From NCBI RefSeq assembly GCF_056712565.1, contig NZ_CM160072.1: a DNA stretch of 64,000 nt, one strand, 5' to 3'. The notes beneath the pieces are model-generated. The model searched no databases. It saw only the letters and a program-made list of their open reading frames with translations, and was not told where the DNA came from. The translations under genes were made by a program, and so were the position numbers. Positions 53,667 through 53,744 of the stretch are shown here, in pieces. Within the stretch, counting starts at the first letter, position 1; each line of letters starts with the position of its first letter.

Positions 53667-53697
53667 AATGCGACCAATCATCGTAATGAATATGAGA

Positions 53698-53720
53698 ACT
53701 GTGATATTATAACATTTCAT
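53698..53720. promoter_or_regulatory. Zur box in divergent znuA / znuCB promoter
   Basis: GAACTGTGATATTATAACATTTC palindrome between znuA start and znuC start. Confidence 0.7.
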
Positions 53721-53744
53721 AACTACTGCAAGACTAAAATTAAC

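Follow-up and report, generated by a model that had tools for sequence, protein, structure and literature searches.

The 64,000 bp stretch of contig NZ_CM160072.1 (NCBI RefSeq assembly GCF_056712565.1) that was analysed here, called the window below, carries a divergent pair of zinc-uptake operons in the gene order pyk, lpxM, mepM, znuA (− strand) / znuC, znuB (+ strand), ruvB, ruvA. The start codons of znuA and znuC are the ATGs at 53666 (−) and 53745 (+), in agreement with the RefSeq annotation, and the range that the original prediction had singled out, 53667–53744, is exactly the 78 bp gap between these two ATGs. Judged from their sequences, the flanking genes encode the ZnuABC high-affinity zinc importer: ZnuA, ZnuC and ZnuB all score above their NCBIfam equivalog cut-offs (Table 1) and ZnuA is identical at 306 of 310 positions to the crystallised E. 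coli ZnuA (PDB 2OGW; the differences are Q50E, E98G, D120G and N297S), so the proposed identity of the locus as znuA / znuCB stands. The znuB start and the znuC stop overlap by 4 bp. A 352-aa open reading frame with a TTG start (52734–53792), which crosses the operator into znuC, was rejected as a mechanical artefact; the true znuA start is the ATG given above. The zur gene is absent from the 64 kb window.

Over the 801 bp around the site the window and the chromosome of the E. coli type strain ATCC 11775 (DSM 30083) agree at every base, and the same 801 bp are 95–100% identical in 5425 of 5426 complete E. coli genomes. Over the whole 64 kb the window differs from the RefSeq ATCC 11775 record at 8 bases, all of which lie outside the znu region. 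One of the eight lies in exoX (37203–37865, + strand), which in the window encodes an intact, uninterrupted protein of 220 aa and is annotated as a pseudogene in the ATCC 11775 record, where A instead of G at 37669 changes TGG to TGA (W156*). The window must therefore stem from a different assembly or from a very near relative of that strain. The closest B2 relatives, S4, p1-49 and E07 (loci L015–L017), have an IS1397 element (IS3 family) inserted in the znuB–ruvB interval, ~190 bp downstream of znuB at the equivalent of window position ~55444; the window has no IS1397 there. Three RNA features elsewhere in the window are recorded here for completeness: a Mn2+ riboswitch (yybP-ykoY, RF00080; 16545–16641, + strand) upstream of mntP, which a default Rfam scan misses because its 40.9 bits fall short of the gathering score of 45; an overlapping antisense sRNA pair at 34185–34329, SraC/RyeA (+ strand, 176 bits) and SdsR/RyeB (− strand, 114 bits); and a region matching the cspA thermoregulator RNA family (18235–18695, − strand, 136 bits) across yobF and the cold-shock gene region, where the RefSeq gene label is cspE.

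Table 1. Coordinates of the genes, operator elements and candidate promoter elements at the znu locus (window numbering)
Feature	Position	Strand	Remarks
znuA	52734–53666	−	310 aa, periplasmic zinc-binding protein; Pfam PF01297 2e-65; NCBIfam NF007091 equivalog 527 bits (cut-off 268)
His/Asp/Glu-rich loop codons	53250–53312	−	ZnuA residues 119–139
znuA–znuC intergenic region	53667–53744		78 bp, 71% A+T; contains the two divergent promoters, each with a short 5′ UTR
Equivalent of the 31 bp DNase-protected, crystallised K-12 operator	53695–53725		base 1 = 53695, base 31 = 53725
Zur box, gamma-proteobacterial, 23 bp	53696–53718		11-1-11 pseudo-palindrome GAACTGTGATATTATAACATTTC; 9/11 arm positions complementary
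Structure-based Zur core, 20 bp	53700–53719		holds contacted purines G7...G24′ of PDB 4MTD; by analogy bound by two Zur dimers; same as the K-12 operator
Candidate extended −10 of znuA promoter, TGTTATAAT	53706–53714	−	within the Zur core; predicts a start near 53699; placed by geometry
Likely znuC −10 hexamer, TATAAC	53708–53713	+	fits a box at −22 to −3, giving +1 near 53722
Alternative znuC −10, TGATATTAT	53702–53710	+	motif within the core
znuC	53745–54500	+	ABC transporter ATPase; NF007090 equivalog 536 bits (cut-off 306); PF00005
znuB	54497–55282	+	ABC transporter permease; NF007089 equivalog 535 bits (cut-off 284); PF00950

The acidic, histidine-rich loop of ZnuA

A His/Asp-rich loop of ZnuA had been predicted together with the control region, within 53667–53744. 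The loop is present (residues 119–139), but its codons lie well away from that range, inside znuA at 53250–53312. It is situated just before ligand His143, and the zinc ligands E59, H60, H143 and H207 are all present in the protein. Its residue 120 is Asp in the window and Gly in K-12 (G120D); the D120 loop-coding allele is found as an exact match in 1095 of the 5426 genomes and is thus a common variant.

The loop is there, but is its length usual among ZnuA orthologues? A direct homologue search gave only proteins that are at least 87% identical, so the comparison was made with 145 diverse homologues, each of which represents one 50%-identity cluster. In these 145 proteins a segment of 13–85 residues separates the equivalents of K116 and H143 (median 35 residues, with a median of 9 His), and 133 of them have at least 3 His in it. 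In the window ZnuA this segment has 26 residues, 6 of them His and 11 Asp or Glu. The loop is therefore typical in kind and shorter than most (26 residues against the median of 35), and on this comparison of sequences it is a family-wide feature. The three His ligands are near-universal among the homologues. Glu59 (codon at 53490–53492, − strand) is an unusual ligand by comparison: its column contains Glu in only 9 of the 145 and Pro in 128.

Proteins of the ZnuA-type cluster A-I with a His-rich loop include those of E. coli (2OGW/2OSV), Salmonella (2XQV/2XH8) and Synechocystis (1PQ4). The window protein resembles them in its Pfam ZnuA fold, its three His ligands and the flexible His/Asp/Glu-rich insertion that precedes the second ligand His; it differs from most homologues in its shorter segment with fewer His (6 versus a median of 9) and in having Glu59 as the fourth ligand. 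By analogy with these proteins the acidic, histidine-rich loop at the mouth of the zinc site would be the usual accessory element for metal capture and ZinT docking.

The palindrome between znuA and znuC and its match to Zur motifs

An 11-1-11 pseudo-palindrome lies in the 78 bp gap, at distances of 29 bp and 26 bp from the ATGs of znuA and znuC, respectively. It is centred on 53707, 1.5 bp away from the midpoint of the gap (53705.5). The repeat search returned only an inner 9-nt palindrome, and the 11-1-11 palindrome was therefore scored by a script. Both the existence of a palindrome and its central place between the divergent starts had been correctly predicted, but "near-perfect" is too strong a description of 9 complementary arm positions out of 11. 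Palindromes of this form with at least 9/11 complementary positions are also not rare: there are 18 in the window, compared with 7.9 ± 2.6 in shuffled sequences. With 18 comparable palindromes in the window, symmetry alone is no evidence for a Zur site, and it is the match to the Zur motif rather than the palindromy that carries the identification.

This match was measured in several ways. The pattern TGWNAYRWTATAWYRTNWCA, derived for E. coli from the structure (Gilston et al. 2014, PMC4219657), is matched with 0 mismatches at 53700–53719, the only place in the window where it is found with 2 or fewer mismatches. The two-dimer pattern TGWNAYRWTATAWYRTNWCA / RNNNYRNNRYNNYRNNNY is satisfied as well, with the contacted purines G7, A11′, A12, A15, A16′, G19′, A20 and G24′. 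The 23 bp gamma-proteobacterial consensus GAAATGTTATANTATAACATTTC matches at 53696–53718 with 2 mismatches (the only window match with 3 or fewer, where 0 are expected), and the 19 bp Y. pestis form of the Zur box matches with 2 mismatches. A Zur matrix was also built from the four experimentally validated K-12 operators of PMC4219657 Table S2, from which the znu site was kept out so that it was not part of its own training set, leaving zinT, ykgM/L31p and pliG. This matrix gives 28.5 bits at 53696–53718, within the 27.8–30.4 bits of its training sites; the second-best, unrelated window site has 10.9 bits, and none of 200 window shuffles reaches 28.5 bits (maximum 21.9). Consensus patterns and independent matrix thus agree on 53696–53718 as the single outstanding Zur site of the window, and the palindrome, which the original prediction would have given up had it failed to score with a curated Zur matrix, scores like a validated operator.

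The palindrome could in principle be a by-product of two −10 hexamers, TATAAT and ATTATA, that overlap in opposite orientation in a gap rich in A+T, with no dedicated repressor site at all. The 71% A+T of the gap, the position of both candidate −10 elements in the centre of the palindrome and the 18 comparable palindromes in the window are what would be seen in that case. The outer arms (TGTG...CATTTC), on the other hand, are not needed by any −10 and fit the Zur motif too, and they are kept in distant loci (below); none of 5000 shuffles of the AT-rich gap reaches 20 bits (maximum 19.5), against the 28.5 bits observed; and the core has the same sequence as a DNA that was crystallised with Zur. 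We therefore regard a by-product of promoter overlap as very improbable.

The equivalent of the 31 bp K-12 PznuABC operator (PDB 4MTD) is at the same locus in a gap of the same 78 bp, and the window has the identical 20 bp core with all eight contacted purines. Of the 31 footprint bases, 29 are identical. At 53699 (crystal base 5) the window has C where K-12 has G, and at 53721 (crystal base 27) it has A where K-12 has G; outside the footprint the window has C for A at 53679. Every published experiment used the K-12 bases at the two footprint positions. Further references for the K-12 znu Zur operator are Patzer & Hantke 2000 and Outten & O'Halloran 2001. Zinc-dependent Zur binding and Zur-dependent repression have been shown for the K-12 allele (PMC4219657) and in Y. 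pestis (PMC2706843).

An operator for another regulator of the Fur family, such as Fur itself, would also look like an AT-rich pseudo-palindrome of about this length, as all Fur-family boxes do, but no stretch of the window fits the Fur consensus GATAATGATAATCATTATC with 3 or fewer mismatches, and the central TATA, which is read by Tyr45 of Zur, is Zur-specific (PMC4219657). A Fur-type operator in place of a Zur operator is, in our judgement, barely conceivable, even less probable than the promoter by-product. Given the core identity with the crystallised operator, the motif statistics, the conservation of the box in place (below) and the identities of the genes, all of which were observed directly in this analysis, the site is almost certainly the known Zur operator, placed in the control region that the divergent operons znuA and znuCB have in common. 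As the original prediction had said of them, the Zur operator and the ZnuA loop were both established previously, and neither is new.

Probable divergent promoters and their proposed control

We infer the promoter positions in the gap from the geometry of the motifs and from published descriptions of these promoters. An extended −10 inside the operator is mentioned in the legend of Figure 1B of PMC4219657, and the Zur box at znuC has been placed at −22 to −3 (PMC5916954); mapping this published −22 to −3 box onto the 20 bp core puts the znuC +1 at ~53722, with TATAAC as the probable −10. In Y. pestis, primer extension and footprinting placed the Zur box across the −10 of each of the two divergent znu promoters (PMC2706843). 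A generic sigma-70 −35/−10 promoter and terminator scan of 53500–53900 gave no match, which is expected and uninformative if these promoters, as proposed, lack a −35 and rely on an extended −10. No RNA family was found by Rfam in the same 53500–53900 interval at a permissive threshold.

The following account of Zur binding, its zinc dependence and promoter occlusion is drawn, like the function of the ZnuA loop, by analogy from experiments in K-12, Y. pestis and Salmonella. In a zinc-sufficient cytosol two zinc-loaded Zur dimers would bind cooperatively to opposite faces of the ~31 bp at 53695–53725 and would recognise RNNNY motifs within the 20 bp core. The two −10 elements would lie back to back in this core (TATAAT at 53711–53706 on the − strand for znuA and TATAAC on the + strand for znuC), so a single Zur complex would block RNA polymerase at both promoters. 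When zinc drops, Zur would lose its regulatory zinc and depart, and both operons would be transcribed.

The znu operator has relatives within E. coli and beyond. The zinT, ykgM/L31p and pliG operators of E. coli share the RNNNY-based two-dimer motif with it, but each of them governs a single promoter whereas the znu site governs a divergent pair. The affinity of Zur for the K-12 znu operator is ~150–330-fold weaker than for zinT and L31p (Kd-app), and repression there is only ~7-fold (PMC4219657 Table 3). In Yersinia pestis znuA and znuCB are likewise divergent, the gap is short at 73 bp, and the Zur box overlaps both −10 elements. A second, box-less footprint (site 2) has been reported there (PMC2706843), of which no counterpart was seen here. 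SoxS activation of znuACB has been described as indirect, with no gel shift (PMC12818246).

Could a further regulator act on top of Zur? Apo-ZntR is reported to speed the release of Zur ("through-DNA") by way of a partial ZntR dyad that overlaps the box, and the flank differences noted above could alter this dyad. Such a layer would add to control by Zur and not replace it. The effect was reported in 2024 for the K-12 31 bp operator, in cells and by single-molecule FRET (PMC11618457). The zntA dyad ACTCTGGAGTCGACTCCAGAGT, whose location 36 bp upstream of the zntA start codon was confirmed, was used as the query here, and it matches the znu gap at only 8 of 22 positions in the window and 9 of 22 in K-12, fewer than the 10.0 positions that shuffled 78-mers reach on average at their best, so no partial ZntR site is statistically visible in the znu gap with this query. 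A ZntR layer on top of the Zur operator is possible at this locus, but we hold it to be rather doubtful.

Operator variation in related loci and in E. coli

Salmonella-like and Citrobacter koseri loci, whose ZnuA proteins are 88–90% identical, have the core TGTGATATTATAACATT unchanged; the positions that differ in this comparison include 53699 (C, G or A) and 53721 (A or G). Further contigs, those of ZnuA homologues at 43–56% identity, were compared as well. The divergent znuCB arrangement is kept in 7 loci (including L014, where znuC is uncalled and was found by tblastn at 56% identity), and 5 of the 7 have a box of at least 21 bits in the gap (ZnuA 44–90% identical). The best matrix matches inside these gaps are 23.4 bits in L007, L008 and L010, 21.3 bits in L014 and 30.8 bits in L023; in L010, L014 and L023, where ZnuA is only 44–51% identical, the box is central in the znuA–znuC gap with 21–31 bits. 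Two loci have weak boxes despite their divergent order, L009 with 7.8 bits (1927–2000, ZnuA 54%) and L012 with 9.7 bits (1932–2000, ZnuA 48%). L012 is very AT-rich. Divergence of the box or loss of regulation may account for the low scores of these two loci. A box of 18.5 bits is located 17 bp upstream of znuA in L024. In L011, L013 and L022, where znuA is apart from znuCB, no box was found by the Zur matrix.

Within E. coli, the exact 78 bp gap allele of the window is rare, being present in only 130 of the 5426 complete genomes, and the majority allele has G at both 53699 and 53721. Megablast with the 78 bp gap misses ~977 genomes, since the three SNPs of the K-12-type allele leave no exact 28-mer, so all allele counts from that search other than the exact-match 130 are lower bounds. 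The nearest relatives, S4, p1-49 and E07, have ~10 differences from the window in 3.6 kb, and 53699 and 53721 are two of these; the number of SNPs expected in the 31 bp target is ~0.09, which gives a Poisson P of ~0.003, calculated post hoc. In terms of the promoters placed above, 53699 is at about +1 of the znuA promoter and 53721 at −1 of the znuC promoter.

Do these two substitutions have an effect? The changes (53699 G>C, 53721 G>A) fall just beyond the contacted core and might alter the basal strength of the promoters, the set-point of Zur or derepression assisted by ZntR, but we consider this unlikely. The simplest reading is that the variation is neutral and affects the bases under the weakest constraint in a highly constrained region, because both positions vary between genera too.

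Few metalloregulatory circuits are as well characterised as the Zur–znuABC switch: a co-crystal structure exists, zinc is sensed at femtomolar levels, and the switch has a part in survival when the host limits zinc. The window operator leaves this established picture unchanged. The value of the site is that of an annotation anchor only, which fixes the identity and orientation of the lpxM-mepM-znuA / znuCB-ruvBA region. All that is new is that the E. coli type-strain lineage has a natural variant of the operator flanks with two SNPs; if, improbable as it seems, the two SNPs are functional, that lineage would have a different zinc-uptake threshold.
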